The notes: generated by a model not told the origin, from the sequence alone. A DNA stretch of 64,000 nucleotides from Candidatus Brocadiaceae bacterium (GCA_963805825.1 CAWDVO010000025.1:22023-86022); one strand, 5' to 3'. Numbered from the stretch's first letter, positions 13,651 to 28,865 are shown. Program-made: numbers and translations.

Positions 13651-15397
13651 CGGACCGGTCCTGGAGCTGAGCGGCGTCGGCAAGACCTTCCGCGCGGGCA
13701 AGCGCCGCACCGAGGCGCTGCGCGACGTGAGCTTCGGCGTGCGGCCCGGCATCGTCACCGGCCTGATCGGCCCGGACGCCGCGGGCAAGACGACGCTGAT
13801 GCGGCTTTGCGCCGGGCTGCTCGTGCCGGACGCCGGCGGCATCACGGCGCTCGGCCTCGACTGCGCGCGACGAGTCGGCGCAGGTGCAGGCGTCCGTCGG
13901 CTACATGCCGCAGCAGTTCGGCCTGTACGAGGACCTCTCCGTCCAGGAGAACCTGGACCTCTACGCGGACCTGCACGGCGTGCCGCGCCGCGAGCGCGCC
14001 CGAGCGCTACGAGAGCTGATGCGGATGACCGGCCTCGCGCCGTTCACGGCGCGCCTGGCCGGCCGGCTCTCCGGCGGCATGAAGCAGAAGCTCGGCCTGG
14101 CCTGCACGCTGGTCCGCTCGCCGCGGCTGCTGCTGCTGGACGAGCCGACCGTCGGCGTCGACCCGGTCTCGCGGCGCGAGCTGTGGGAGATCGTCTACCG
14201 CCTGGTGCGCGAGGAAGGCGTGACCGTCCTGCTGAGCACGGCCTACCTGGACGAGGCGGAGCGCTGCGACGAGGTGGTGCATGCTGCACGAGGGCCGCGT
14301 GCTCGGGCAGGGGCCGCCGGCGTCGTTCCGCGAGAGGGTGCAGGGGCGGACCTTCAGCGTGTCCGTGCCGGCCTCGGCAAAGCGCCGGCTCCAGGCGCAG
14401 CTCGCCGCCGCGCCGGGCGTGATCGGACGCCATCGTCATCGGCGACGGCGTGCGCGTGGTGATGGACGAGCGCCGCCGCGCCCGACCTCGGCGCGCTGCT
14501 GCCGGGCGAGGAGGGCGTCTCGGCCGAACCCGTGCCGCCGCGCTTCGAGGACAGCTTCATCGCCATGCTGCACGCGGAGCGCGCGGGCGGCGCCGCGTCG
14601 CACCGCCATGGAAGGCGACGGCCACCACACGGCGCGCGAGGCGACGGGGCCCGTCATCGAGGTGCAGGACCTGAAGCGGCGGTTCGGCAATTTCTGCGCG
14701 GTCAAGGGCATCAGCTTCAGCGTCGAGCGCGGGGAGGTCTTCGGGCTGCTGGGCGCGAACGGCGCGGGCAAGTCGACCACGTTCCGGATGCTGTGCGGGC
14801 TGCTGCCGGCGAGCGGCGGGCGACCTCAGCGTGGCCGGCGTGGACCTGCGCCGCGCGGCGGCCGCAGGCGCGGGCGCGCATCGGCTACATGTCGCAGAAG
14901 TTCTCCCTCTACGGCAACCTGAGCGTGCGCCAGAACCTGCGGTTTCTTCAGCAGCGCCTACGGCCTGCGCGGCGGGCGCGGCGCGAGCGGATGGAGTGGG
15001 CGCTGGAGGAGTTCGAGTTCGGCCCGCTGGCCGACGCGAACAGCGGCACGCTGCCGCTGGGCTACAAGCAGCGCCTGGCGATGGCCTGCGCGCTGATGCA
15101 CGAGCCGGACATCCTGTTCCTCGACGAGCCGACCTGCGGCGTCGACCCGCTGACGCGCCGCGAGTTCTGGGCCCGCATCAACGCGCTGGCCGAGCGCGGC
15201 GTGACAGTGATGGTGACCACGCACTTCATGGAGGAGGCCGAGTACTGCGACCGCCTGGCGATCATGGCCGCCGGCGAGATCCTGGCCGTCGGCAGGCCGG
15301 CCGAGATCACGCGCCAGCGCGCGCACGGACGAGCATCCCGAGCCGACGCTCGAGGACGCCTTCATCGGCCTGATCGAGCCAGAGGGGGCGCGCATGA
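13634..15397 (+). CDS. ybhF: ABC transporter ATP-binding protein with two NBDs (YbhF-like); several frameshifts
   Basis: Walker [10 protein letters not shown] and [45 protein letters not shown] spread across frames. End approximate. Confidence 0.85.
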
Positions 15398-16521
15398 GCA
15401 GCGCGACCGCCGCCGGCTGCGAAGCGGCTCTGGATGCCGCAAGGAGTTCCTCCAGATCCTCCGCGACCCCAGCAGCATCGCCATCGCGTTCCTGATGCCG
15501 GTGGTCCTGCTGCTGCTGTTCGGCTACGGCGTCTCGCTCGACTCCGAGCACGTGCCGGTGGCGCTCGTCGTGGACCAGCCGGAGCGCGCGGACGCGGCCT
15601 TCGTCGGCGCGTTCGCGCACTCGCTCTACTTCACGCCCGTCGTCATGCGCGACATGCCGGCGGCGCAGGAGGCGCTGATGGCGCGGCGCGTCGACGCCAT
15701 CGTGCGGCTGCGCGAGGACTTCACGCGGCAGCTCGCCACCGGCGGCGCGCCCATCCAGGTGATCGTCAACGGCGTGGACGCCAACACCGCCCGCCAGATG
15801 CTCGGCTACATTCCGGCGCGTGGGCGAAGTGGCTGGAGCACGAGGCGGACCAGTCGCGGCATCGCGGCCGCGGCGCCGGTGCAGCTGGAGCAGCGCGTCT
15901 GGTTCAACCCCGAGTTGCGCAGCCGCAACTTCCTGGTGCCCGGGCTGGTCGCGGTCATCATGACGCTGATCGGCGCGCTGCTGACGGCCATGGTGATGGC
16001 GCGCGAGTGGGAGCGCGGCACGATGGAGGCGCTGCTGGTGACGCCGGCCGCGATGCGCGAGATACTGATCGGCAAGCTGGTGCCCTACTTCGTCCTGGGC
16101 ATGGGCGGCATGGCGCTGTCGGTGGCGATGGCGGTCTTTCTGTTCGACGTGCCGCTGCGCGGGTCGCTGTGGGTGCTGTTCGGCGCGTCGTCGCTGTTCA
16201 TGCTGGCGGCGCTGGGCATGGGGCTGCTGATCTCGGTGCTGGCGAAGAACCAGTTCGTGGCGGGCCAGGTCGCCATCATCGTCACCTTCCTGCCGGCGTT
16301 CATCCTCTAGCGGCTTCATCTTCGACATCGGCAGCATGCCGGCCGTCGTGCAGGGCATCACCCACGTCGTGGCGGCCCGCTATTTCGTCTCGATCCTGCA
16401 GACCGTCTTCCTCGCGGGCGACGTCTGGAGCGTCATTCTGCCGAACGCGGCGGCCCTGGCGATCATGGCCGTCATCTTCCTCGGGCTGACGCGGCGGCTC
16501 TCACGCAAGCGACTGGAGTAG
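15394..16521 (+). CDS. ybhS: ABC-2 permease (YbhS-like); frameshifts
   Basis: KEFLQILRDPSSI, WFNPELRSRNFLVPG, AREWERGTMEALL. Confidence 0.85.
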
Positions 16522-16524
16522 GCC

Positions 16525-17636
16525 ATGTGGCAGCGCATCCTCGCGCTGGCGCTCAAGGAGTTCCTGGCCCTGCTGAAGGACCAAGAGCCGCGTCGTCATC
16601 ATCGTGCCGCCGATCCTGCAGCTGCTGGTCTTCGGCTACGCGGCCACCTTCGACCTGAAGAACGTGCCCTACGCGGTCTACGACGAGGACGGCGGCGAGG
16701 CGGCGCAGGCGCTGCTGGCGGGGTTCGACGGTTCGCCCAACTTCCGCGAGGTGGCCCGCATCACCCACCAGGACCAGATGGCTCCGCTGGTGGACGACCG
16801 CGGAGGCGCTGATGGTCGTTCACGTCGGGCCGACGTTCAGCCGTGACCTGCGCTCGGCCGGCCGGCGCCGGTGCAGGTGATCGTGGACGGCCGCAACTCG
16901 AACACCGCCATGCTGGCCCTCAACTACGCGAGCGACATCGTCAGCGCTTCGGCGCCCGCTGGTCGGCCGAGCACGGCGGCTGCCGCCTCTGCCGGCGACG
17001 CTGGAGACGCGCGCGTGGTTCAACCCGAACCTGGAGAGCCGCTGGTTCATCGTGCCCGGCATCGTGGGGCTGCTGACGCTGGTGGTGACGATGCTGGTGA
17101 CGGCGCTGTCGGTGGCGCGCGAGCGCGAGCAGGGGACGTTCGACCAGTTGCTGGTCACGCCGCTGCGGCCGGTGGAGATACTGATCGGCAAGGCGCTGCC
17201 GGGGTTCGTCATCGGCGTCTTCGAGGCGACGTTCATCACGACGATGGCCATGTTCTGGTTCCACATCCCGCTTCCGGGCAGCTTGGCCACGCTCTACGCG
17301 GGCATCGTGCTCTTCCTGCTGGCCGTCATCGGCGTGGGGCTGATGATCTCGTCGCTGGCGGTGACGCATGCAGCAGGGCCTGCTGGGCGCGTTCCTGTTC
17401 CTGGTGCCGGCCATCATCCTCTCGCGGCTTCACCACGCCCATCGCCAACATGCCGCGTCTCGTGCAGGACCTGACCTACCTCAACCCGATGCGCTACTTC
17501 ATGGTGATCCTGCGCGGCGTGTTCCTCGAGGGCACGCCCTTCCACCTGCTGATCGGCCAGTTCTGGCCGATGGCCGTCATCGGGCTGGTCGAACCTGACC
17601 GTGGCGGGGTGGCTGTTCAGGCACCGCATGTACTGA
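16525..17636 (+). CDS. ybhR: ABC-2 permease (YbhR-like); frameshifts
   Basis: KEFLALLKD, FGYAATFD, DGRNSNTA, SVAREREQGTFDQLLVTP, LNPMRYF. Confidence 0.85.
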
Positions 17637-17650
17637 CCGCACTGCAGGCG

Positions 17651-17680
17651 TTGAAGGCGAAGCGGCGGGCCTGCTACAAT
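17651..17680 (+). promoter_or_regulatory. Putative promoter of the six-gene biosynthetic operon
   Basis: TTGAAG - 18 bp - TGn-extended TACAAT. GGAGAGG RBS before the GTG at 17721. Confidence 0.55.
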
Positions 17681-17720
17681 GTGATACTCTTCGTGGGCTG
17701 CCGGTATCGAGGGGAGAGGC

Positions 17721-19244
17721 GTGGACGTCCTACTCATCAACAGCAACGTGACACGTTGTGCGCTATCCGGTTACGGCCACACACCCGCGCCAGCCGGACT
17801 CATCAGCCTGGCCGGCGTGCTGAGGCGCGCCGGACACCGCGTGCGCATCTGCCAGGCCGACAGCCACGTGCTCGCCCAGGACGAGGACGAGCTGCCCCTG
17901 GCGCGCGCCGAAGCCGAGCGCCTGCTCAAGGCGGGCGTGCCGGACGCCATCGGCATCTCCCTGCGGAACGTCGGCGCCATGCGCCGCCCCACCAACCCCT
18001 TCCAACTGATCCGGTACTACTCCGCGTTCCACGACGCCCGCCTGGTAAGGGCATTGCGCACGGTCTGCGGCGCGCCCATCGTCGTCGGTGGCACGGCCTT
18101 CTCCGTCGAACCGGGCCTCTACATGCGGCACGTGCAGCCGGACTACGGCCTGCTCGGCGAGGCGGAGGAGACGCTGCCGGCCTTGCTGGCCTGTCTTTCG
18201 GAGGGCCGCGAGCCGGAGGGCATCCCCGGCCTGGCCCGCACGCCCGAGGACGTGGCGCCCGGCCGGCGCACCTACGGGCGCGTGAAAGACATGTCCGTCC
18301 TCGGCCCCGGCGCGTTCGATACGGTGGACGACTTCCGCCGCCGATACTACGACCAGGGCGGCCTGGCCCCGATCCAGACCAAGCGCGGCTGCCCCATGCA
18401 GTGCCTCTACTGCACCACGCCCTGCATCGAGGGTGGCGCCTACCGATTTCGCCCGCTGGAACACGTCATCGCCGAGATGCGGGCCTACCGCGACGCCTGC
18501 GGCGTGCGCCATTTCTTCATCGTGGACGCCACCTTCAACCACCCACCGGACCACGGGCTGGAGGTCTGCGAGGCCCTCATCGAGGCCGACCTCGGCATAG
18601 AGTGGTTCACTGAGCTGACGCCGGCCGTCGTAACGGATGAGATGTGCCGCCGGATGGTCCGCGCCGGCTGCATCGGCGTCACCCTCACGCCGGACGCCTG
18701 TTCCGAGCAGACGCTCCGGTCCTACGGCAAGCCGTTCGGCGTGGCCGAGGTGCGCAACGCCGTCAAGCTGCTGAAAGCTCACGGCATCCCGTTCGACACC
18801 TGTCTGATCGTCGGTGGTCCGGGCGAGACCGAGCGGACGCTGGCCGAGTCGATCGCATTCTGCGAGGAGCACCTGCGGGAGGACGTGGTGCGCTTCTACG
18901 ACGGCATGGTGCTGACGACCAGCTCGCGCGGCTACGGCGTCGCGGTGGACGAGGGGCTGATCGACCCGTCGCGGTCCTACGAGGACCTGGTGCTGGGCAA
19001 CGACTTCCGCGCGGTGAAGGCGTACCACTACTTCTTCCCGCACGTCAAGGCCGGCAGGGCCGAACTGATGGCGAAGGTGGATCGCCTTTGCCGCCGCGGC
19101 CGATGGTTGCTGACAAGCCGGGACTATGCACCGGACCCGGCCACCGGGGAGTTCGCACTCTCGGGGGACTTCCATCTGCAGCCCGGGGCGCGCCCGTGGT
19201 GGAGCGGCCTGCGGCGTGCCGAACCCGCGCCTTCGGAGGGTTGA
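17721..19244 (+). CDS. Cobalamin-binding radical SAM protein
   Basis: N-terminal B12-binding Rossmann (PAGLISLAGVL, PDAIGISLRN, IVVGG, GEAE), then IQTKRGCPMQCLYC (CxxxCxxC) and GGPGET. Confidence 0.92.
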   Translation: MDVLLINSNVTRCALSGYGHTPAPAGLISLAGVLRRAGHRVRICQADSHVLAQDEDELPLARAEAERLLKAGVPDAIGISLRNVGAMRRPTNPFQLIRYYSAFHDARLVRALRTVCGAPIVVGGTAFSVEPGLYMRHVQPDYGLLGEAEETLPALLACLSEGREPEGIPGLARTPEDVAPGRRTYGRVKDMSVLGPGAFDTVDDFRRRYYDQGGLAPIQTKRGCPMQCLYCTTPCIEGGAYRFRPLEHVIAEMRAYRDACGVRHFFIVDATFNHPPDHGLEVCEALIEADLGIEWFTELTPAVVTDEMCRRMVRAGCIGVTLTPDACSEQTLRSYGKPFGVAEVRNAVKLLKAHGIPFDTCLIVGGPGETERTLAESIAFCEEHLREDVVRFYDGMVLTTSSRGYGVAVDEGLIDPSRSYEDLVLGNDFRAVKAYHYFFPHVKAGRAELMAKVDRLCRRGRWLLTSRDYAPDPATGEFALSGDFHLQPGARPWWSGLRRAEPAPSEG

Positions 19245-19249
19245 TTGCC

Positions 19250-20512
19250 ATGCACACCATCGCGTGGGGCGAGGACGTGTACGAGTTCGAGGTGCCGGAC
19301 GGCGCCTGCCTGACCCGCCTGGAAGGGCCGTCGGCCGAGCCTAACGGCGATCCGCGCGAGGCCATCCGTCGCGCGCTGCGCAGCCCGCTGGGCTGCCCGC
19401 CGCTGCAGGAGCTGGCGCGCGGCCGTCGCACGGTGGCCGTCATGGTGCCGGGCAAGGACCGCGTGGCCGCCGTCGCCGACTGCCTGCCCGTACTTCTGGA
19501 CGAGCTGAACGCCGCCGGCGTGCCCGATGAGGCGGTCACCGCCTACCTGGCGACCGGCACACACGCGAAGCACTCCCCGGCCGATGCCGCCCTCGTGCTC
19601 GGCGAGGAGGCGGCCGGCCGCGTCCCCTACGTTCAGCACGACTGCGACGACCCCGCCGGCCTGCGCTCCATCGGGACGACGAGCCGCGGCAACGAGGTGC
19701 TCATCAACGCCGCCGTGCTCGACGCGGACCTGAAGGTGCTGACGGGGCGCGTGATCCCCCACTACTTCGCCGGCTTCGGCGGCGGGCGCAAGGCCCTGAT
19801 ACCGGGCGTCGCCTCGGTCGAGACCATCAAGCGCAACCACCGCCTGACGCTCGCCCCCGAACGCGGCATCCACCCCCGCGTGCGCCCCTGCTCGCTGGAG
19901 GGCAACCCCGTCCACCTGGACATGGTGGAGGGAGCGCGGATGGTGGCCGGCAACTTCGTGCTGAACACCGTCCTGGACACGAGCCACACGCTGGCGGGGG
20001 CGTTTGCCGGTGAGCTGAAGGCGGCCCATGCGGCCGGCTGTGCGGCGGCCGGGCGTCTGCATACGGTGCGGACGCCTGAACCGTTCGACGCCGTCATCAC
20101 GAGCGCCGGCGGCGCGCCATACGACTGCAACTTCATGCAGGCCCTCAAGGCGTTGTTCAACGTGCAGGAGGCCGTCCGGGACGGCGGCGCCGTGCTCTGC
20201 GCGGCGCAGTGTCCGGGCGGGATGAAGGAGGGCTTCCTCCGCTGGGCGCAGGTTAGGCCGGACGGAGAGCTTGAGCGCGGGGTGAGGGCGCGGTATGATC
20301 TGACGGGCCACAACTCCGTCATGCTCAGACGCCTGCTGAGACGCGCGCGCGTGGCCCTCTGGAGCGCACTGCCGCAGGACTCGGTGCAGGCGCTGGGGCT
20401 GGTGCCGGTGCGTTCGCTCGAAGAAGGCCTGAGCTGGCTGCGCGGGGAAGCCGGCGGCGGGCGCTGGGGTCTGGCGCCGTTCGCCAACGTGACCTATGCG
20501 ACTCTGGGCTGA
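19250..20512 (+). CDS. LarA-family nickel-pincer-dependent 2-hydroxy-acid racemase/epimerase
   Basis: ALRSPLG, ATGTH, GTTSRG, PHYFAGFGGGRKALIPG, IKRNH, NPVHLDM, GGAPYDCNFMQALKA. Confidence 0.9.
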   Translation: MHTIAWGEDVYEFEVPDGACLTRLEGPSAEPNGDPREAIRRALRSPLGCPPLQELARGRRTVAVMVPGKDRVAAVADCLPVLLDELNAAGVPDEAVTAYLATGTHAKHSPADAALVLGEEAAGRVPYVQHDCDDPAGLRSIGTTSRGNEVLINAAVLDADLKVLTGRVIPHYFAGFGGGRKALIPGVASVETIKRNHRLTLAPERGIHPRVRPCSLEGNPVHLDMVEGARMVAGNFVLNTVLDTSHTLAGAFAGELKAAHAAGCAAAGRLHTVRTPEPFDAVITSAGGAPYDCNFMQALKALFNVQEAVRDGGAVLCAAQCPGGMKEGFLRWAQVRPDGELERGVRARYDLTGHNSVMLRRLLRRARVALWSALPQDSVQALGLVPVRSLEEGLSWLRGEAGGGRWGLAPFANVTYATLG

Positions 20513-20523
20513 GGGGACGTAGA

Positions 20524-21801
20524 GTGCGCACCGGGCCGTCGAGGAAAGCCGTGCAGCACCGCTGTCTCGGCTGCGGAAGGGAGTATCCGCACAGCTTCGC
20601 CACGCTGTGCGAGTGCGGGGCGATGGTCGAGGCGTACTACGACCTGGAACGCGCCCGCATCCACGAGTCCGACAACCCCTACGTCCGCTACTTCGACCTG
20701 CTGCCCCTGGAGGACCCCGCCAACCTGCTGCCGGTCGAGCACCGGATGACGCCCACGGTCCATGCGACGGCCCTGGGCAGGAAGCTCGGCCTCTCCCGCC
20801 TCTTCCTGAAGGACGAGACCGGCCTGCCCACCTGCACGACCAAGGACCGCATGGCGATGGCGGTGCTCTCGCTCTTTCGCGAGCTCGGTATCACCGAGTT
20901 CGCCACCTCTTCCACCGGCAACAGCTCCACCGCCCTCGCCCGCCACATCCGCCTCTACCCGGACTGCCGGATGTACATCTTCATGGGCGAGGACTTCGTC
21001 GACCGGCTGAACTTTGCGCCGACGCCGCAGGTGGTCGTCTTCGGGCTGCGCGGGAGCACGTTCGTGGAGGCGTACGCCGAGGCGCTCAACTTCGCCGCGC
21101 GGCGCGGCGTGGTCTCCGAGCGCGGCTTCTTCAACCCGGCGCGGCGGGCGGGGCTGAAGACGGCCTACCTGGAGGCCGCCGAGGCCGTCGATGGCCCCGT
21201 CGATTGGCACGTGCAGGCCGTCAGCTCCGCCATGGGCGTCTACGGCGCCTACCAGGGCGCAAAGGAGCTGCTGGCCATGGGCCGCGCAACCTCACTGCCC
21301 CGGCTGCTGTGCGTGCAGCAGGAGACCTGCTGCCCGATGGTGAGGGCGTTCGAGGCCGGGTCGTCCGTCATCCGCCCGCAGGACGTGGTGGAGCGGCCCA
21401 GCGGAATCGCGTCGGCCATCCTGCGCGGCGACCCGCGGCGCGCGTATCCTTACGTGCATCGCATCGTGGTGGAGAGCGGCGGGACATTCGCGGCGGTCAG
21501 CGAGCGGGCGATACGCGAGGCGCGCCGCATGGTCGAGGACCTGGAGGGCATCAGCCCGTGCTTCGACGCTGCCGCCGCCGTGGCCGGCCTGGCGCGCTTG
21601 GCGCGGGGCGGCGTCGTGGCGCCCGCCAGCACCGTGGTGGTAAACCTGACCGGCGGGGACCGGCCCGAGAGCGGTCCGCCCGAGGGCATCCACTGGCTGG
21701 AGAGGACGGACGGCGGCTGGGCCCCCGCCGACCCGCAGGACACCGTGGCCCGGGAACTCTGGGAGGAGACGCAATGCCTGACTCGACAGCCACCCGCGTA
21801 G
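20524..21801 (+). CDS. PLP fold-type II enzyme, threonine synthase/cysteate synthase-like
   Basis: N-terminal CxxC..CxCG zinc ribbon, LKDETGLPTCTTKDR (PLP Lys), SSTGNS, NPARRAGLKT, QAVSSAMG, VVNLTG. Confidence 0.88.
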   Translation: MRTGPSRKAVQHRCLGCGREYPHSFATLCECGAMVEAYYDLERARIHESDNPYVRYFDLLPLEDPANLLPVEHRMTPTVHATALGRKLGLSRLFLKDETGLPTCTTKDRMAMAVLSLFRELGITEFATSSTGNSSTALARHIRLYPDCRMYIFMGEDFVDRLNFAPTPQVVVFGLRGSTFVEAYAEALNFAARRGVVSERGFFNPARRAGLKTAYLEAAEAVDGPVDWHVQAVSSAMGVYGAYQGAKELLAMGRATSLPRLLCVQQETCCPMVRAFEAGSSVIRPQDVVERPSGIASAILRGDPRRAYPYVHRIVVESGGTFAAVSERAIREARRMVEDLEGISPCFDAAAAVAGLARLARGGVVAPASTVVVNLTGGDRPESGPPEGIHWLERTDGGWAPADPQDTVARELWEETQCLTRQPPA

Positions 21802-22034
21802 CGGCCATCGTAGCGCGTGTGGGCCACCTGGGACCGCAGGAACAGGTCGACGAGAGCACCCCACTGGTCGGCGGCGGCGTCGCCCTCGACTCAGTCAGCG
21901 TGCTGGAGCTGCTGCTGGCGCTGGAGCAGGAGTTCGGCATCGAGGTGGACGCCGAGGAGCTGCTCGAGGCGAAAGCGCTGCACACCGTCGGCACCCTTGC
22001 CGCCTTCATCGACGCGAGGACCGCTCAGGCATGA
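21774..22034 (+). CDS. Stand-alone acyl carrier protein (86 aa)
   Basis: Acidic; ALDSVSVLELLLALEQEFGIEV phosphopantetheine-Ser motif, TVGTLAAFI. RBS GGAGGAG. Overlaps both neighbours. Confidence 0.92.
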   Translation: MPDSTATRVAAIVARVGHLGPQEQVDESTPLVGGGVALDSVSVLELLLALEQEFGIEVDAEELLEAKALHTVGTLAAFIDARTAQA

Positions 22035-23476
22035 AGACGCTCTGGGAGGGCATGGCGAAGGCGGCGGGCCGCGTCCCGCCGAAGCCCGCGCTCGTGGAGC
22101 GCGGCCTGACGCTCACCTACCCGGAGCTGCTCGCCGCCACGGCGGCCATGGGCGACTTCCTGACCGAGGCGGGTCTCGGCCCCGGCGAGACGGCGGCCGT
22201 GCAGATGCCCAACTCCGTCGACTGCGTCGTCTGCGCGCTCGGGGTGGTGCGCACGGGCGCGGGCCTCATGGTGCTGGATGCCGCACTGAAACCGCAGGAG
22301 GTGGCCCGCTGCTGCGGCATCGCCCGCGCCGGGATGCTGCTGGTCGACCCGGCCGGACAGGCAGAAGCCCCGCAGGACGGCCCGCCGCTTCTGGCGGCGC
22401 CGAGGGCACGCGAACTGAAGGCCGCCACGGCCGATCATGGCGCGCCGCCGGAGGCAGGCGAGGGCCCCTACCTGCTGCTCTCCTCGGGGACGACGGGCGC
22501 GCCGAAGGTCGTCCACCGCGAGAGCCGTCACATGGAGGCGGCCGTGCGCATACACGCGGCCGGGCTCGGCTACGGCCCGGACGACCGCACGCTGGCCGTG
22601 CTGCCCTTCTGCCATAGCTTCGGGCTCGGCAACGTGCTGCTCGGCACGCTCGCGCGCGGCGGCACGCTGTTCCTGGAGGCGTTCTCGCCGCGCAGCACGG
22701 CGGCCACAATCGAGCGCGAGCGCATCACCGTCCTGCCCGGCACGCCGTTCATGTTCCGCGCGCTGGCGCAGACGGCGTTCCGCCGGCGGCCGGATTTCTC
22801 GTCCGTGCGGTGCGCCGTCTCGGCGGGTTCGGCGCTCTCCCCGGCCATAGCCGTCGGCTTCGCGGAGGCATACGGAATACGCATCGCCCAGTGCTACGGC
22901 ACCACGGAGACCGGCCCCGTCACGCTGGCCCGGTCCGTACACGACGTGCCCGCCGGCTGGCTGGGCAAGCCGGAGCCGGGCGTTGAGGTGCGGATACTCG
23001 ACGACGGCCGGCCGCTCGGACGCGGTCTGTCGGGCCAGGTGGCCGTCCTCAGCCCCGCCAATGCCACCGGCTACCTAAGCGAGCCCGAGCTGACCGCCGC
23101 GAAGTTCCGCGACGGCTGCTTCCTGACGGGCGACGTGGGCCGCGTCGACGCGGACGGCGACTTATTCGTCACCGGGCGCGTCAAGCCGATGGTGAGTGTC
23201 GACGGCAAGAAGGTATCGCCGGCCGAGGTAGAGGCGTGCCTGCGGGCCCATCCCCGCGTAGCGGAGGCGCTGGTCGTGGCGGGCGGCGACCGGCGGGAGG
23301 GCGAGTGGGTGAAGGCGCTCGTCGTGCCGCTCCGGGAGGTGACGGCCATGGAGCTGCGCGAGCACTGTGGGCAGAACCTGGCCGCCTTCAAGGTCCCGCG
23401 CCAGATCGTCTTCGTGGACGACCTCTCGTCCGGACCCATGCAGAAACCGTCGGCCGCCGCATCGGCCGGGGACTGA
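22031..23476 (+). CDS. ANL adenylate-forming ligase (acyl-CoA/acyl-ACP synthetase-like)
   Basis: SSGTTGAPK, LPFCHSFG, YGTTETG, LTGDVG, GR..M..VDGKKVSPAEVE, FKVPR. Confidence 0.92.
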   Translation: MKTLWEGMAKAAGRVPPKPALVERGLTLTYPELLAATAAMGDFLTEAGLGPGETAAVQMPNSVDCVVCALGVVRTGAGLMVLDAALKPQEVARCCGIARAGMLLVDPAGQAEAPQDGPPLLAAPRARELKAATADHGAPPEAGEGPYLLLSSGTTGAPKVVHRESRHMEAAVRIHAAGLGYGPDDRTLAVLPFCHSFGLGNVLLGTLARGGTLFLEAFSPRSTAATIERERITVLPGTPFMFRALAQTAFRRRPDFSSVRCAVSAGSALSPAIAVGFAEAYGIRIAQCYGTTETGPVTLARSVHDVPAGWLGKPEPGVEVRILDDGRPLGRGLSGQVAVLSPANATGYLSEPELTAAKFRDGCFLTGDVGRVDADGDLFVTGRVKPMVSVDGKKVSPAEVEACLRAHPRVAEALVVAGGDRREGEWVKALVVPLREVTAMELREHCGQNLAAFKVPRQIVFVDDLSSGPMQKPSAAASAGD

Positions 23477-23487
23477 AGGGAGGACCG

Positions 23488-24444
23488 ATGCAGGGAATTG
23501 ACCTCAGCGACCCGCTGCGCCCCGCGAAGCTGCCGTGGAGCCTGGTGGCGCTGGGCGCCGCGCGCAACTTCACCTACCACGCCCTGCCCATCTCCTGGTC
23601 GATGGCCCTGACGAGGGCCACCACCCGCCTGGACATGCTCCGCCGGCCCGACCGACGGCGCCAGTTGCTCAGCGTGCTGCGCACCATCGTGCCCGAGCAG
23701 ACGGACGAGCGGGAGCTGATGCGCCAGCTCGTGCTGACCCGCGCCCTGCGCAAGTTCGGCGGCAACACGTTCGCCGCCGTCTTCCACCGCTCACGCGAGT
23801 GGCTGCTGGGCGTCCTGCGCCCCGAGGGCATCGAGCACCTCGACGCGCTCCACGCCGCCGGCAGCGGCGCCATCATTCTGGGCACGCACGTCGGCCAGAA
23901 CGGCTGGGTAGGCCCGGTGCTGCACGACATGGGCTACCCCGTGCGCCTGATGCAGCGCCGCAGGACCACGGTGGACTCGTACATGCTCATGCGCCGGGGC
24001 GGCCTGCTGCCGGAAGTCCTGCCCTTCCCTCCGCCCGAGGAGAGCGGCGCACACCTGAAGCGCATCCACGACATACTGCGCGCCGGCCGGTGGGCACAGC
24101 ACGTGGGCGACTTCCCGACAAACTCCGGCGGCGTGCGCGGCACCTACCTGGGGCGGCAGGTGCAGTGCGTGCCGGGGCCGTGGGTGCTGGCGCGGTTGGC
24201 GCGCGTGCCGGTGGTGCCGGTGGTGATCCTGTCGGACAGGCGAGGACTGCCCCGCATGGTGGTCCGGGAGCCCATCCACGTCGGCCCGGCCGCGTCCCTG
24301 CGCGACGGTCTCGACGGTCCCTTCCAGACCTACCTGGACTTCGTCACGGCCCGCGTCCGCCCCACACCGTGGAACGTAGGGCTCAAGCACTGGCAGAAGC
24401 TCTTCGAGGCGGAGTGGCCGGACGGGCCGTACGCCTGGGGCTGA
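23488..24444 (+). CDS. LpxL/HtrB-like (lipid A late acyltransferase family) acyltransferase
   Basis: EGIEHLDAL..GSGAIILGTHVG, L..G....HVGD, YLGR, GPWVLARLARVPVVPV, C-terminal PW....HW. Confidence 0.75.
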   Translation: MQGIDLSDPLRPAKLPWSLVALGAARNFTYHALPISWSMALTRATTRLDMLRRPDRRRQLLSVLRTIVPEQTDERELMRQLVLTRALRKFGGNTFAAVFHRSREWLLGVLRPEGIEHLDALHAAGSGAIILGTHVGQNGWVGPVLHDMGYPVRLMQRRRTTVDSYMLMRRGGLLPEVLPFPPPEESGAHLKRIHDILRAGRWAQHVGDFPTNSGGVRGTYLGRQVQCVPGPWVLARLARVPVVPVVILSDRRGLPRMVVREPIHVGPAASLRDGLDGPFQTYLDFVTARVRPTPWNVGLKHWQKLFEAEWPDGPYAWG

Positions 24445-24457
24445 CGGCCGGCGGACC

Positions 24458-26053
24458 TCAAGGCAAGCCCTGCTCGCGCAGCTTGTCCAGCAGGTCGCAC
24501 TGCTCCTTGCGCAGGCCCCGGCCGACGGTCACCGGCAGGTTCAGAATGAGGTGCTCGTCGTTCTGCTCGGTGAAGCGCGGCCAGGGCGCGGCGCCGGCGC
24601 CGTTGGGGTTGCCGGTCGCGGCGAAGCGCATCCAGTAGCCGATCATCTCGTCCGAGAGCCGCCGGTCGTCCGCGCTGAAGCCCCATCGCGGCGCCACGCC
24701 GAAGACGTAGGGCACCTCGGCGCCGTGGTGGCAGTCCAGGCCCATGCTGCGCGCCCAGGCGCTGGAGCGCGTGAACTGGTAGAGGTAGGTGTCCGGCTGC
24801 GCCGGGGCGGTGGCTTGCACGGCGGCGCGCGTGCTGTCGACGAAGACGTCGCCGAGTATCTGCGTAAGGGCGGCGCGCGCCGTGGAGTCGTCGTCGGCAG
24901 GATAGAGCGCCAGCACGTCGCCCGCATGGCCCTTGTAGGCGGTCCGCACCAGCATGCGGTAGCCGAACAGGCCATTCACGTGCGCCTGCCGCACGAACAG
25001 CGTGCCCTCGTCCGCGCAGGTGCCGGCCATGAAGGGCACGTGCGCCTGCGCGCCGCGTGCGAACGTCGTGCCCGGCGGCTCGGTCAGCACGTAGCCGTCC
25101 ACGCACAGGTAGTCGCGCGTGCCCGCGCCGGGCATTCCGGAGGACTCCGGCGCGGCGTCCAACACGTCCTGCCAGGACTCCGCCCGGAGCGCGGCGAGGG
25201 CGCCGGGACCGTCGGGGATGCCCAGCCGGCGGGCCAGCTCCACGCCGGAGGACTCCATGCTCGGCAGGCCGGGCAGGTCCCAGACGTGGTAGCGCAGCCG
25301 GTCCGGCGCGGCACCGCTCTCCGCGATGGCGTGCTGGAACAGGCCATTCGCCAGAGGCGTACACATCAGCGTGCAGACGCTGACCGCGCCGGCTGATTCG
25401 CCGAAGATCGTCACATTCCCCGGGTCGCCGCCGAAGGCTGCGATGTTGTCGTGGACCCAGTGCAGGGCGGCAATCTGATCCATGATGCCGTAGTTGCCGC
25501 TGGAATGGTGCGGGGACTCGGCGGCGAGCGCCGGGTGCGCCAGGAAGCCGAGCACGCCGAGGCGGTAGTTGATGGTGACCAGCACTACGCCCGCCCGGGC
25601 GAGTGCGACGCCGTTGTAGTTCCGCATGGACCCGCTGCCCTGACGCAGGCCGCCGCCGTGGATCCAGACCATGACGGGCCGGGGCGCGTCCCCCGGGCGC
25701 ACGGCGGTCCAGACGTTCAGCCGCAGGCAGTCCTCGTCCATCGGCCCGACGTCCCCGCCCAGCGCGCCGGGCGGCTGCGGGCAGGACGGGCCGAACTGCG
25801 TCGCGTCGCGCACGCCTTCCCACGGCTCGGGCGGCGCGGGCGGCTTCCAGCGCAGGTCGCCGACGGGCGGCGCGGCGTAGGGGATGCCCAGGTAGGCGGC
25901 CACGCCGTCCTCGGTCCTCCCCCAGATGCGGCCGCCCGCAATGCTGAGCACCGGCGCATCCCCGCCCTCCGCCGGCGCGGCCAGGACGGGGGCGACCGCC
26001 AGCGTCAAGGCGGCCAGCACGAGGACCTTCACGCGAGAACAGACCGTCTTCAT
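24458..26053 (-). CDS. Secreted type-B carboxylesterase/lipase
   Basis: Signal peptide, YLGIPYAAPPVGDLRW, EDCLRLNVW, WIHGGG, FGESAG nucleophile, HGAEV. Confidence 0.93.
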   Translation of the reverse strand: MKTVCSRVKVLVLAALTLAVAPVLAAPAEGGDAPVLSIAGGRIWGRTEDGVAAYLGIPYAAPPVGDLRWKPPAPPEPWEGVRDATQFGPSCPQPPGALGGDVGPMDEDCLRLNVWTAVRPGDAPRPVMVWIHGGGLRQGSGSMRNYNGVALARAGVVLVTINYRLGVLGFLAHPALAAESPHHSSGNYGIMDQIAALHWVHDNIAAFGGDPGNVTIFGESAGAVSVCTLMCTPLANGLFQHAIAESGAAPDRLRYHVWDLPGLPSMESSGVELARRLGIPDGPGALAALRAESWQDVLDAAPESSGMPGAGTRDYLCVDGYVLTEPPGTTFARGAQAHVPFMAGTCADEGTLFVRQAHVNGLFGYRMLVRTAYKGHAGDVLALYPADDDSTARAALTQILGDVFVDSTRAAVQATAPAQPDTYLYQFTRSSAWARSMGLDCHHGAEVPYVFGVAPRWGFSADDRRLSDEMIGYWMRFAATGNPNGAGAAPWPRFTEQNDEHLILNLPVTVGRGLRKEQCDLLDKLREQGLP

Positions 26054-26209: not shown

Positions 26210-27748
26210 ATGGCAGACGAGCACATCCACGAACTGCAGTGCCCGGCCGGCGAGCGACCCGCCCCGCTGCCTCGGGCCGCGCTCTACCTGGCCCTCGGCT
26301 GCATCGCCTTCGGCGTCGTGCTGCGCCTGCGCCTCTACCTGTTCAGCCCGGCGCTCTGGCTGGACGAGGCGTCCTTGGCCCTCGACCTGATGCGCTTCCA
26401 CTCGCTGGGCGTCCAGATGCACAACGGGCACACGCAGATCACGCCGCTGCTGTTCCTCTTGATGACGAACGCGTCGATGCTCCTGTTCGGCACCGGCGAG
26501 CACGCGCTCAGGCTGGCGGCCCTGCTGGCGGGCCTGGCGGCGTTCGTGCCCTTCTACTTCCTGTCCCGGCGGACGCTGGGGCCGTGGGGGGTGGTGGTCG
26601 CCCTCGGCCTGATGGCCATCGCACCGAAGGCCGCCAACTACGCCGCCATGCTCAGGCACTACACGATGGACATCGCCGTCTCGGCCGCGCTCGCCTACCT
26701 GCTCGTCCTCGCCGTCCACCGGCGGCTGGACCTGAAGTGGGGGCTGCTGCTGGCTGCGGCGGGGGCGGCGGCCGCCTGGTCGTCGTTCCCGTCCGTGTTC
26801 GTGCTGGCCGGCTTCGGCACGGTGCTCTGGACCGCTGCGCTCCTGCGCAAGGAGTGGCGCCGGGCGCTCGGCTTCGCGGCCGTGGGCGCGGTGTGGATCG
26901 CGAGCACCGGCACCTACTACGCCCTGTTCCTGCGCAAGGCCAGCGAGTCCCCCCAACTGGAGTCCTTCTGGGACCCCGGTTACATGCCGCCGCCCACGTC
27001 GGTCCACACCCTCTCGTGGCTCCAGCACACGATGTCCGGCGCGCTCCACGACGTCGGCGGCTACAGGATCACGGCGCTGGCGGCCTTCGCCTTCTGGGTG
27101 GGCTTCGTCGCGCTCTTCCGCCGCTGCCGGGAGCTGGCGCTCGCCCTGACGGCCCCGCTCGCCGTAACGCTCCTCGCCTCGGCCTTCAGGCTCTATCCCT
27201 TCGCCGGCCGGCTTCTGCTCTTCCTGCTGCCGATGCTCTGCGTCCTGGTGGCGGCCGGCGTCGAGCTGGCCTGGACGGGCACGCGCGGCAAGTGGCGGGT
27301 GCCTGCGGGCCTCCTCATTGTGATGCTGCTGGCGTTCCCCATCGAGCGCGCCTTCGCCATCCTCGTCGAGCCGGAGGCCCGCGAGGAGATCCGGCCCGTC
27401 CTTGCCTACATCGCCGCGCACCGCCAGCCGGGTGACGTCCTCTACGCCTACCGCCCCTCCTACCTGGCGCTGCGCTACTACGAGGATCGCTACGGCCTGC
27501 AGGACATGGGCGCCATCCGCGGTGGGCCGCCGAGCAAGACCAAGGCGGGCTACGAGAAGGAGTTCCGCCAGTTGGAGGGCCGCGGCCGCACGTGGGTAGT
27601 CTTCGCCCACCTCAAGGACTTCCAGCTCGAAGCCATGGTGCGCTACCTGGACACGATCGGCAGGCGGCTCGACGAGGTGCAGGCCACCGGCGCCTACGGC
27701 TACCTCTACGACATGGACCGCACGCCGCCCCCTGCCCGGGCGCCTTAG
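26210..27748 (+). CDS. GT-C (GT39/PMT/ArnT-like) integral membrane glycosyltransferase
   Basis: Multiple TM helices, LWLDE acidic loop motif, GEHALRL, RHY, LYPF.GR. Periplasmic C-terminal domain. Confidence 0.78.
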   Translation: MADEHIHELQCPAGERPAPLPRAALYLALGCIAFGVVLRLRLYLFSPALWLDEASLALDLMRFHSLGVQMHNGHTQITPLLFLLMTNASMLLFGTGEHALRLAALLAGLAAFVPFYFLSRRTLGPWGVVVALGLMAIAPKAANYAAMLRHYTMDIAVSAALAYLLVLAVHRRLDLKWGLLLAAAGAAAAWSSFPSVFVLAGFGTVLWTAALLRKEWRRALGFAAVGAVWIASTGTYYALFLRKASESPQLESFWDPGYMPPPTSVHTLSWLQHTMSGALHDVGGYRITALAAFAFWVGFVALFRRCRELALALTAPLAVTLLASAFRLYPFAGRLLLFLLPMLCVLVAAGVELAWTGTRGKWRVPAGLLIVMLLAFPIERAFAILVEPEAREEIRPVLAYIAAHRQPGDVLYAYRPSYLALRYYEDRYGLQDMGAIRGGPPSKTKAGYEKEFRQLEGRGRTWVVFAHLKDFQLEAMVRYLDTIGRRLDEVQATGAYGYLYDMDRTPPPARAP

Positions 27749-27827: not shown

Positions 27828-28865
27828 ATGCACCCGCTGTTGTCGCTACGGAAGTGGCGCGCGATAGGCAACTTCTATCGGCGCGCGGCCCGGCTGTACG
27901 CGGCCGTCGGCTCGCCGTGGCCCCCGCTGCGGCTGATGGAGTACGACGCGCGCCGCGCCGTCGGCAAGTCCCCGCCACTCTTCCTGGACATCGCCCTCAC
28001 CTACGACTGCCAATGCGACTGCATCCACTGCTCCGCCCGCTCGCACGCCGGCCGTGGGCCGGAGCTGGACACCGAGGGGATGAAGGACGTTCTGACCCAG
28101 GGCGCCCGCATGGGCGTGCAGGAGGTCATCCTCTCGGGCGGCGAGGCGCTGCTGCGCGAAGACCTGCCGGAGATCGTCCGCCACGCGCGCCGCCTCAACC
28201 TGCTCACGCGCCTGAACACCAACGGCCTCGCCGTCGACCGCCGCACCATTCGCACGCTGCGCCGCGCCGGGCTGTCGCAGTGGGCGGTCTCCATCGACGC
28301 GGCGGACGCCGCCACCCACGACCGGCGCCGCGGACTGACGGGTACTTACCGGGCCGCCGTCCGCGCGCTGCGCCTGCTGCGCGAGGAGGGCGTGCTCTGC
28401 CAGATACTCACTTACGCCAGCGAGGAGGACCTGCCGGAGGGCCTGGAGCGCATCGCCCGGCTCGGCCGCGAGATGGGCGTGCTGGCCGTCTTCGCCTTCT
28501 TCCCCATGGCGACGGGCAAGTGGATGGGCCGGCTGGACCGCGCGCTGAGCGAACGGCAGCGGGAGACCGTTCGGTCCTTCGTCGACCTCGGCCTGGTCCA
28601 CGTGGAGCTGCCGACCGCGCACGACAACTGCTGCACCTACACGCAGCAGTTGCTCTACATTACGGCCGACGGCCGCGTGACGCCGTGCCCGTTCGTGCCC
28701 TACGTCATCGGCAGCCTGCGCGAGCACAGCCTGCGTGAGATATGGGCAGCCTACGCGCGCGACCTGGGCAGGATGGAGTGCCGCGGCGACTGCCCGATGA
28801 ACGCGTCTCGCCACCGCGCCGACCTTGCCCGTTACGTGCGCGAGCACTCGCTCACGCCGGTGTAA
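27828..28865 (+). CDS. Radical SAM protein with SPASM/twitch domain
   Basis: TYDCQCDCIHC, SGGEALL, TNG, VSID, CC...YITADGRVTPCPF..IGSL, distal CRGDC. Confidence 0.9.
   Translation: MHPLLSLRKWRAIGNFYRRAARLYAAVGSPWPPLRLMEYDARRAVGKSPPLFLDIALTYDCQCDCIHCSARSHAGRGPELDTEGMKDVLTQGARMGVQEVILSGGEALLREDLPEIVRHARRLNLLTRLNTNGLAVDRRTIRTLRRAGLSQWAVSIDAADAATHDRRRGLTGTYRAAVRALRLLREEGVLCQILTYASEEDLPEGLERIARLGREMGVLAVFAFFPMATGKWMGRLDRALSERQRETVRSFVDLGLVHVELPTAHDNCCTYTQQLLYITADGRVTPCPFVPYVIGSLREHSLREIWAAYARDLGRMECRGDCPMNASRHRADLARYVREHSLTPV

Follow-up and report, generated by a model that had tools for sequence, protein, structure and literature searches.

We analysed a stretch of 64,000 nucleotides (nt) from a Candidatus Brocadiaceae bacterium (GCA_963805825.1 CAWDVO010000025.1:22023-86022), hereafter called the window, with a focus on positions 17651-24444, where the initial annotation had placed six intact, co-oriented genes behind a single putative promoter. 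All six genes lie on the plus strand. They encode a B12-binding radical S-adenosylmethionine (SAM) enzyme (g1, 17721-19244, GTG start, 507 amino acids (aa)), a LarA-superfamily enzyme of the nickel-pincer nucleotide type (g2, 19250-20512, ATG start, 420 aa), a ThrC/cysteate-synthase-like fold-type II pyridoxal phosphate (PLP) enzyme with an N-terminal Cys4 ribbon (g3, 20524-21801, GTG start, 425 aa), a dedicated acyl carrier protein (ACP) with a PP-binding domain (g4, 21774-22034, 86 aa), an ANL adenylate-forming ligase of the CoA-ligase type (g5, 22031-23476, 481 aa) and a divergent acyltransferase of the LpxL/LpxM/PatA family (g6, 23488-24444, 318 aa). The reading that we favour, with a probability of about 0.45, is that of a carrier-protein-dependent acyl-decoration operon arranged around a two-enzyme core, in which a small acid would be built, loaded and passed on to a membrane glycolipid.

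Raw lists of open reading frames (ORFs) are crowded because the G+C content of the window is ~71%, and the six genes were picked from a plot of third-position GC in combination with stop-to-stop translations. Segments of 300 nt lying inside one gene gave third-position GC values of 0.87-0.97 in the proposed frames; segments spanning a gene boundary gave lower values, and g4 with its 261 nt has no segment of its own. The genes are separated by +5, +11, -28, -4 and +11 nt, carry no in-frame stops and start behind GGAGG-like ribosome-binding sites. For g3, the GTG at 20524 was chosen over an alternative GTG at 20551 on the basis of the N-terminus of its family and a GAGGGGA ribosome-binding site. 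A promoter scan of positions 17300-24800 returned two sites as compared to 0.2 expected; one of them, a sigma-70-like and TG-extended candidate at 17651-17680 on the plus strand (TTGAAG-18 nt-TACAAT, a consensus match only), begins exactly where the initial annotation had the operon begin. The gene layout and the promoter candidate described there are thus confirmed, and the same holds true for its six family assignments, as each gene yielded Pfam matches above the curated cut-offs: Radical_SAM and B12-binding for g1, Lar_N and LarA_C for g2, PALP for g3, PP-binding for g4, AMP-binding and AMP-binding_C for g5 and Lip_A_acyltrans for g6. Neither a ketosynthase nor a condensation (C) domain lies within the operon, again as stated there.

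A pattern scan using one genome per species yielded 95 confirmed relatives of g3, the best 80 loci of which were kept and form the basis of all counts out of 80 given here. Their gene content was determined by tblastn with the six proteins, and as neighbours all ORFs within 8 kb were clustered and scanned with Pfam and NCBIfam. The full order radical SAM-LarA-PLP-ACP-ANL-transferase was found in two metagenome-assembled genomes (MAGs) of Planctomycetota (loci L003 and L004) at 41-64% identity, and the six-gene arrangement thus exceeds what is expected by chance. Indeed, the idea that the six genes form a unit kept in other genomes holds in both cases. Two further loci have the arrangement without a radical SAM gene, namely a Lentisphaerales locus with the order LarA-PLP-ACP-ANL-transferase, the transferase being confirmed by Pfam (L005), and a locus in which ligase and transferase are fused in an 801-aa ORF, giving the order LarA-PLP-(ANL::transferase)-ACP (L009).

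Within the family of the PLP enzyme, the form with ACP, ligase and acyltransferase is nested as a sub-branch, and the six-gene operon is a rare offshoot of a widespread, previously undescribed three-gene cassette. The PLP gene is preceded by a LarA homologue in 19/80 loci and by a ThiO-like flavin oxidase in 57/80; the remaining four have neither gene, two of them being located at contig edges. The flavin adenine dinucleotide-dependent oxidase of these sister cassettes comprises 373 aa and is encoded immediately upstream of the PLP gene and in the same direction; within NCBIfam it comes closest to ThiO glycine oxidase (162 bits, short of the cut-off), and its nearest solved structures are glycine oxidases, including 6j38. 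Organisms in culture that have the oxidase form include Sphingomonas hankyongi SE220, Oceaniferula spumae NT6N and Phormidium tenue FACHB-1050. In 54 of the 80 loci, a gene for a nonribosomal peptide synthetase (NRPS)-like protein of ~865 aa with adenylation, thiolation and thioesterase domains (A-T-TE) lies no more than 8 kb from the PLP gene. Such an A-T-TE-type adenylating gene is present at nine of the 19 LarA-type loci, and the ANL/ACP form at four. A quick, unrooted maximum-likelihood tree of 81 PLP proteins, from which PLP ORFs shorter than 330 aa were left out, groups LarA-linked proteins in a clade of 18 (support 96), inside which the five proteins with ANL, ACP and transferase genes, the window's own included, form a nested clade (support 99). 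These comparisons show that g2 and g3 represent an ancient linked pair, which is the core of the operon, and that in the sub-branch of the window the free-standing g5, g4 and g6 replace the A-T-TE protein.

The same partners are also joined in single proteins, which combine Lar_N with PALP (P0391), DAO with PALP (P0392), PALP with PP-binding (P0037, a link between PLP enzyme and carrier), radical SAM with PP-binding (P0157) and ANL ligase with transferase (P0262, in addition to L009). These fusions linking PLP enzyme, carrier, radical SAM enzyme, ligase, acyltransferase, LarA and oxidase, together with the overlapping stop and start codons and the gene order retained in L003 and L004, speak against a chance adjacency or the meeting of two unrelated operons, that is a catabolic LarA/PLP pair and a lipid module. 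A point in its favour is that the characterised LarA homologues act on 2-hydroxy acids in their free form, as racemases or epimerases (PMC11770544, in its accessible part); nevertheless, we regard this explanation as very improbable.

As to the core enzymes, g2 scores 183.2 bits for Lar_N (cut-off 23.3) and 30.9 bits for LarA_C (cut-off 25), and it stays below the cut-offs of all LarA subfamilies in NCBIfam (LarAH10, 336 of 540 bits; malate racemase, 320 of 500; others, 269 of 462 and 255 of 460). Alignment to 2yjg (LarA) and 6d6z (malate racemase) revealed that GTHAKH, PHYFAGFGGGRK and NH are conserved. By this alignment, g2 keeps the LarA catalytic set, i.e. two catalytic His, the cofactor-binding Lys and the Ni-ligand His, the counterparts of which in L. 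plantarum LarA are His108, His174, Lys184 and His200. At the position of N-I-Y-Q-x-x-K in LarA, g2 reads N-F-M-Q-A-L-K and thus has Met in place of the Tyr of the substrate motif, N-x-Y-Q-x-x-K. The genome of the host encodes LarC (492 bits), LarE (328 bits) and LarB (204 bits), all above the curated cut-offs, which together with the conserved catalytic set backs the earlier assignment of g2 as a nickel-pincer enzyme. LarC was also detected in 6/6 other LarA-type genomes examined, that of L021 among them, and in one of four oxidase-type genomes (present in that of L067, not in those of L057, L075 and L055). Accordingly, g2 has domains and catalytic residues in common with the LarA superfamily (LarA, MAR, HGR, GntE and LarAH10-type HHR), but differs by falling below every subfamily cut-off and by its location in a biosynthetic carrier-protein operon. 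The accessible part of PMC11770544 describes the characterised LarA homologues (LarAHs) as racemases and epimerases acting on free lactate, malate, 2-hydroxyglutarate, gluconate/mannonate and hydrophobic 2-hydroxy acids, and places none of them next to genes for carrier proteins or adenylation. The accessible part of a 2026 paper reports a nickel-pincer enzyme family of distinct structure, which shuttles hydride between molecules.

The second core enzyme, g3, matches PALP with 129 bits and remains below the NCBIfam cut-offs for threonine synthase (PRK08197, 142.6 of 303 bits) and cysteate synthase (TIGR03844, 137.4 of 324.9 bits); its matches among solved structures are ThrC (2zsj, 89 bits) and cysteate synthase (9k3c, 77 bits). 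With these enzymes g3 has the PALP fold and the Schiff-base Lys motif in common, the Lys of TTKDRM being invariant in both alignments of the g3 family, and its N-terminal Cys-rich ribbon aligns with the counterpart in 9k3c. The g3 family is nevertheless separate from threonine and cysteate synthases and well conserved, with ERGFFNPxRR and VQAVSSAMG as its own motifs. Scoring of 8000 metagenomic candidates returned 1257 matches at E ≤ 1e-10, the best 120 of which are 54-81% identical to g3; in 60 relatives of the host, nothing but one weak match at 32% was found. Cysteate or sulfolactate was rejected as the acid, since the cysteate synthase score of g3 does not exceed the one for threonine synthase and a gene for sulfopyruvate reductase is missing. 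An SbnA/SbnB-like route to diaminopropionate was rejected as well, on account of A domains without the amino-binding Asp, and an action of g3 on an ACP-tethered nucleophile, for which the fusion P0037 is the sole hint, was not adopted.

For the nature of the loaded acid, carrier and ligase are informative. The carrier g4 matches PP-binding with 38 bits and has the phosphopantetheine Ser, the Ser of its LDS motif being invariant in 5/5 orthologues; two phosphopantetheinyl transferases (PPTases) are encoded in the host genome. The ligase g5 matches AMP-binding with 211.7 bits and, among solved structures, comes closest to feruloyl-, oxalate- and malonyl-CoA ligases, FadD13 and MenE. Its A10 Lys is kept in 4/5 orthologues, while its A4 core reads PFCHSFG, a motif type shared by four orthologues, and has no amino-binding Asp. 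In NRPS, the Asp of A4 binds the alpha-amino group of the substrate. The A domains of the A-T-TE proteins resemble NRPS A domains overall; in HMMER alignments, the Asp of the FSFDGS motif of LgrA aligns to Ser, and none of the 36 A4 windows read from adenylating proteins has F-D-x-S (12 of 48 adenylating proteins could not be parsed). Because g5 and the A-T-TE A domains are both without the amino-binding Asp, the acid that is loaded is probably of the 2-oxo or 2-hydroxy type, which fits the amine oxidase or 2-hydroxy-acid enzyme encoded next door. By the same token, AlmE-like transfer of a glycyl residue by g5 is unlikely, since its nearest solved structures are CoA ligases and PFCHSFG offers no such Asp; here the initial annotation, which had likened the module to AlmEFG, has to be revised.

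The load could also be a fatty acid. In this case, g5 would act as acyl-ACP synthetase for g4, and g6 would O- or N-acylate the small hydroxy or amino acid that g2 and g3 produce, or a lipid to which this acid is attached, to give a membrane lipid of the lipo-amino-acid or lipo-hydroxy-acid type. A fatty acyl load is possible for g5 because its closest NCBIfam subfamily is a long-chain-fatty-acid CoA ligase (PRK06187, 269 bits, below the cut-off of 476), and FadD13 is among the structural matches. Moreover, the characterised LpxL, LpxM and PatA enzymes transfer fatty acyl groups, according to structure titles and the accessible part of PMC6286764, and the curated family nearest to g1 is named for lipid biosynthesis and has an ACP nearby in 6/16 regions. 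However, the loader of the sister cassettes is an A-T-TE protein beside the oxidase/LarA-PLP pair with no lipid gene, which suggests a small acid as the natural load; g5 is short (481 aa), the enzymes among its top structural matches ligate small or aromatic acids (feruloyl, oxalate, malonate), and common fatty acids need no dedicated ACP. On balance, we consider the fatty-acyl alternative unlikely.

The acyltransferase g6 is the second, divergent PF03279 copy of the host, which also has a canonical copy, and scores 37.2 bits (cut-off 22.3) for this family. Its AlphaFold2 model has a mean predicted local distance difference test score (pLDDT) of 90.3, and all 14 Foldseek matches of the model at E ≤ 1e-3 are LpxM or PatA (best E-values, 1.4e-11 and 1e-10, respectively). 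In the alignment of the g6 family, His134 is kept in 13/15 and Asp208 in 12/15 members; judging from sequence, these residues may be equivalent to H122 and D192 of Acinetobacter baumannii LpxM, which pair with each other according to the accessible part of PMC6286764. A search among 1.84 billion representatives returned 22 matches to g6 at E ≤ 1e-30, 29 at ≤ 1e-10 and 349 at ≤ 1e-3, that is a small orthologue group, and a metagenome scan with the acyltransferase alignment returned three contigs (L093-L095), too short for context. The view that ligase, carrier and LpxL-family transferase belong together gains support from the ligase-acyltransferase fusions L009 and P0262 and from the exclusive match of the g6 model to LpxM and PatA. 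LpxC (258 bits) and, besides g6, a canonical LpxL (134 bits) are encoded in the host MAG (4.99 Mb, 78% complete), and the host therefore makes lipid A. As a side observation, the LpxC of the host is fused to a FabZ-like dehydratase in a protein of 436 aa (L090:1033-2343, minus strand; C10 of the host genome). The nearest Atlas clusters of this fusion are dominated by Planctomycetota (mostly), Gemmatimonadota and Verrucomicrobiota, which we mention as a lead only.

Alternatively, g6 may off-load the ACP-bound acyl group to an acceptor other than lipid A, paralleling the TE domain of the A-T-TE forms. Possible acceptors would be a sugar linked to undecaprenyl, a unit of capsule or O-antigen or else a soluble alcohol, and the acid would end up secreted or bound to polysaccharide. 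Indeed, most family members have a TE domain rather than a lipid transferase, some LarA-type loci lie near genes for Wzm/Wzt, a Polysacc_synt flippase, GT2, Acyl_transf_3, sulfotransferases and AsnB-like proteins, and efflux or ABC exporter genes flank the cluster in L003 and the operon in the window. In detail, these neighbours are Wzm/Wzt together with an NRPS module (L012), a flippase (L008), GT2 together with a PPTase (L010), Acyl_transf_3 (L020), sulfotransferases (L005) and an AsnB-like protein (L009). However, the tally of neighbours is weak with at most 2-5 of 95 in any one family: among 95 ORFs from 17 LarA-type loci, AsnB-like proteins account for 4-5, methyltransferases for four and sulfotransferases for three, with two of originally 97 ORFs left out, namely the cassette's own transferase in L005 (L005:12705-13820) and a partial ORF (L026:1-438). 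In addition, the exporter upstream of the operon in the window is broken, and matches to the predicted fold of g6 are confined to LpxM and PatA, both of them lipid acyltransferases associated with the membrane. Transfer to a soluble or glycan acceptor is thus a conceivable but rather doubtful outcome, to be taken slightly more seriously than a fatty acyl load.

The radical SAM enzyme g1 matches PF04055 with 82.6 bits and PF02310 with 40.3 bits (cut-off 32.1). Its CxxxCxxC motif (within GCPMQCLYC) and its N-terminal B12-binding domain place it in class B, the cobalamin-dependent radical SAM enzymes, with TsrM (72 bits), AprD4 and TokK as nearest solved structures. The orthologues in L003 and L004 are 58-61% identical, and the orthologue group comprises ~40 clusters at ≥47% identity, after which identity falls to ≤38%. 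A radical SAM gene was seen in only 2/80 PLP-gene loci, giving three genomes when the window is counted. In P0157 a g1 orthologue is fused to an ACP, and g1 therefore more likely acts on a carrier-bound acyl group, as the fused domain architecture suggests. Of the three monomer-building enzymes foreseen in the initial annotation, the LarA-PLP pair thus pre-existed in a widespread cassette, whereas the radical SAM enzyme is a late add-on to the LarA-PLP cassette whose substrate would be bound to the carrier. The best curated match of g1 is TIGR04072 ('lipid biosynthesis B12-binding/radical SAM protein', with clusters in anammox-type Planctomycetota). At 230.3 bits g1 falls below the cut-off of 360 and outside this family, the proteins of which are only 28-36% identical to g1. 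In 6/16 regions examined, the distance between a TIGR04072-type gene and an ACP-like gene is less than 3 kb, and TIGR04072 occurs in 11/11 genomes of one family in the class of the host. The host itself has two TIGR04072-like paralogues (C20:200965-202305 and C11:53158-54267, 318 and 237 bits, respectively), and no match to ACP, ANL ligase or transferase was found within 8 kb of either (L139, L140). Furthermore, the two different g1-like proteins P0128 and P0133 and the g3-like PLP protein P0004 each list a longest contig of 29137 nt, and six further g1/g3 pairs likewise match in longest-contig size, which suggests that more metagenomic copies of the radical SAM form exist.

Based on the linkage of the genes, the families to which they belong, the cofactor genes of the host, the signatures of a non-amino-acid load and the fold of g6, we infer the following chemistry for an acyl-decoration operon. 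A phosphorylated amino acid of the O-phospho-serine or O-phospho-homoserine type would be converted by g3 to a beta- or gamma-substituted amino acid, the skeleton of which would then be brought to the 2-oxo or 2-hydroxy level, in sister cassettes by the flavin oxidase. With its nickel-pincer cofactor, g2 would set the C2 configuration of the 2-hydroxy acid. Subsequently, g5 would adenylate this non-amino acid and load it onto holo-g4, where g1 would modify the ACP-bound acyl group, most likely by C-methylation. Finally, g6 would esterify the acyl group to a glycolipid of the membrane at one of its hydroxyl groups, the first candidate being lipid A or a lipopolysaccharide precursor.

Several observations weigh against this proposal. 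The operon encodes no transaminase or dehydrogenase for the conversion of the amino to the hydroxy acid, and this step is therefore a gap in the proposal. At 6/19 LarA-type loci, no adenylating gene was seen in the DNA examined, and the LarA-linked proteins of L020 and L077 fall outside the LarA clade, albeit with weak support in the unrooted quick tree. The fusions are single-member clusters and could thus be assembly artefacts. The acid at His+5 in the HX4(D/E) motif of the acyltransferase family is missing from g6, which reads H-V-G-Q-N-G where the canonical copy of the host has H-F-G-E-W-E, and His134 and Asp208 are both lost in two of the 15 family members (P0243, P0252). To these points may be added the best NCBIfam match of g5, a fatty-acid ligase, and the neighbours of the LarA-type loci, as no dominant envelope theme or family emerged among the 95 ORFs of 17 loci. 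Finally, the presence of larB, larC and larE accounts for one half of the cofactor supply considered in the initial annotation, but for the other half, B12, CobS (PF02654) was not found in the host MAG with its completeness of 78%.

Since the amino-to-hydroxy step has no encoded enzyme, one may ask whether g2 itself fills the gap and takes the place of the flavin amine oxidase without a need for oxygen. That is, g2 would take the C2 hydride of the amino acid made by g3 onto the nickel-pincer cofactor, the resulting imine would hydrolyse, and return of the hydride would yield the 2-hydroxy acid. This redox-neutral, hydrolytic deamination would be followed by loading, methylation on the ACP and esterification to lipid A. 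To our knowledge, hydrolytic deamination is not a reaction type known for the nickel-pincer cofactor, and we consider this variant improbable.

The operon is flanked upstream by an ABC-2 permease gene (16525-17640, plus strand), which is split across three frames with at least four frame changes, and by HlyD, ABC ATPase and ABC-2 genes at 13800-16310 with odd ORF boundaries. Either decay or local assembly indels may have broken this exporter; the six genes of the operon are intact. On the other side, 13 nt beyond the end of g6, follows a convergent gene for a carboxylesterase of the secreted type (24458-26053, minus strand; PF00135, 386 bits), and further downstream, both on the plus strand, lie genes for a PMT_2/ArnT-like GT39 glycosyltransferase (26210-27748) and a radical SAM-SPASM protein (27828-28865). 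None of these three genes is kept beside the cluster in L003 or L004. Two loci of the wider cassette deserve mention on their own. An Actinomycetota MAG has two tandem copies of the PLP gene behind the oxidase gene (L041:400-2803). A Gemmatimonadales MAG has LarA-PLP-adenylating genes preceded by Wzm/Wzt-type ABC exporter genes and followed by an NRPS module (C-A-methyltransferase-T) and a free C domain (L012:13086-19084); in this organism the acid may enter a peptide or glycan.

How does the operon compare with known systems? AlmEFG of Vibrio cholerae attaches glycine to lipid A and consists of a ligase for adenylation, a small carrier protein and a transferase distantly related to LpxL. At the level of superfamilies, g5, g4 and g6 follow the same logic of ligase, dedicated carrier and transferase. 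However, g5 resembles CoA ligases and has no amino-binding Asp as in DltA/AlmE-type enzymes, the load is probably a 2-hydroxy or 2-oxo acid instead of glycine, and the operon has three extra enzymes (radical SAM, LarA and PLP). A-T-TE NRPS-like enzymes with a partnering amino-acid oxidase or transaminase are likewise known, the aryl-pyruvate-dimerising synthetases being an example. The sister cassettes are similar to these systems in having an A-T-TE protein, a non-Asp A4 and an adjoining amine oxidase, which fits a 2-oxo load, whereas the window has no A-T-TE protein. We know of no counterpart in A-T-TE/oxidase systems for the PLP partner and the exchange with LarA. In SbnA/SbnB and CmiS1/CmiS2, a PLP or addition step precedes the oxidative cleavage of a C-N bond, and the sister cassettes pair a PLP enzyme with an oxidase in the same manner; in this case, however, the PLP enzyme is ThrC-like and not CysK-like, and the downstream A domains lack the Asp that a diamino-acid product would call for. 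In the literature covered, which did not extend to the supplementary tables on LarAH genomic context of PMC11770544 and PMC7583248, we found no description of LarA, a ThrC-like enzyme and carrier-protein genes together. Thus, carrier-dependent acyl transfer by LpxL-family enzymes is known, and a LarA/PLP core feeding into it is previously undescribed.

Taken together, our data reveal a widespread cassette of oxidase or LarA, ThrC-like PLP enzyme and adenylating carrier module, in which LarA is interchangeable with a flavin oxidase across 76/80 species loci from many phyla. The parts of this cassette are labelled 'threonine synthase' or 'radical SAM protein' by current annotation and cluster-detection rules. 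In the operon described here, a LarA homologue resides in a biosynthetic context, unlike the characterised racemases and epimerases of free acids (accessible part of PMC11770544). Elucidation of the pathway would provide a new PLP reaction in the threonine/cysteate synthase lineage, define the natural substrate of a LarA subfamily and possibly reveal a new modification of lipid A or another glycolipid in Planctomycetota-like bacteria. Should g2 indeed act as a deaminase and its product be esterified to lipid A, the nickel-pincer cofactor would for the first time be seen in an anabolic role linked to a carrier protein, and the decoration of the envelope would be of a new class.

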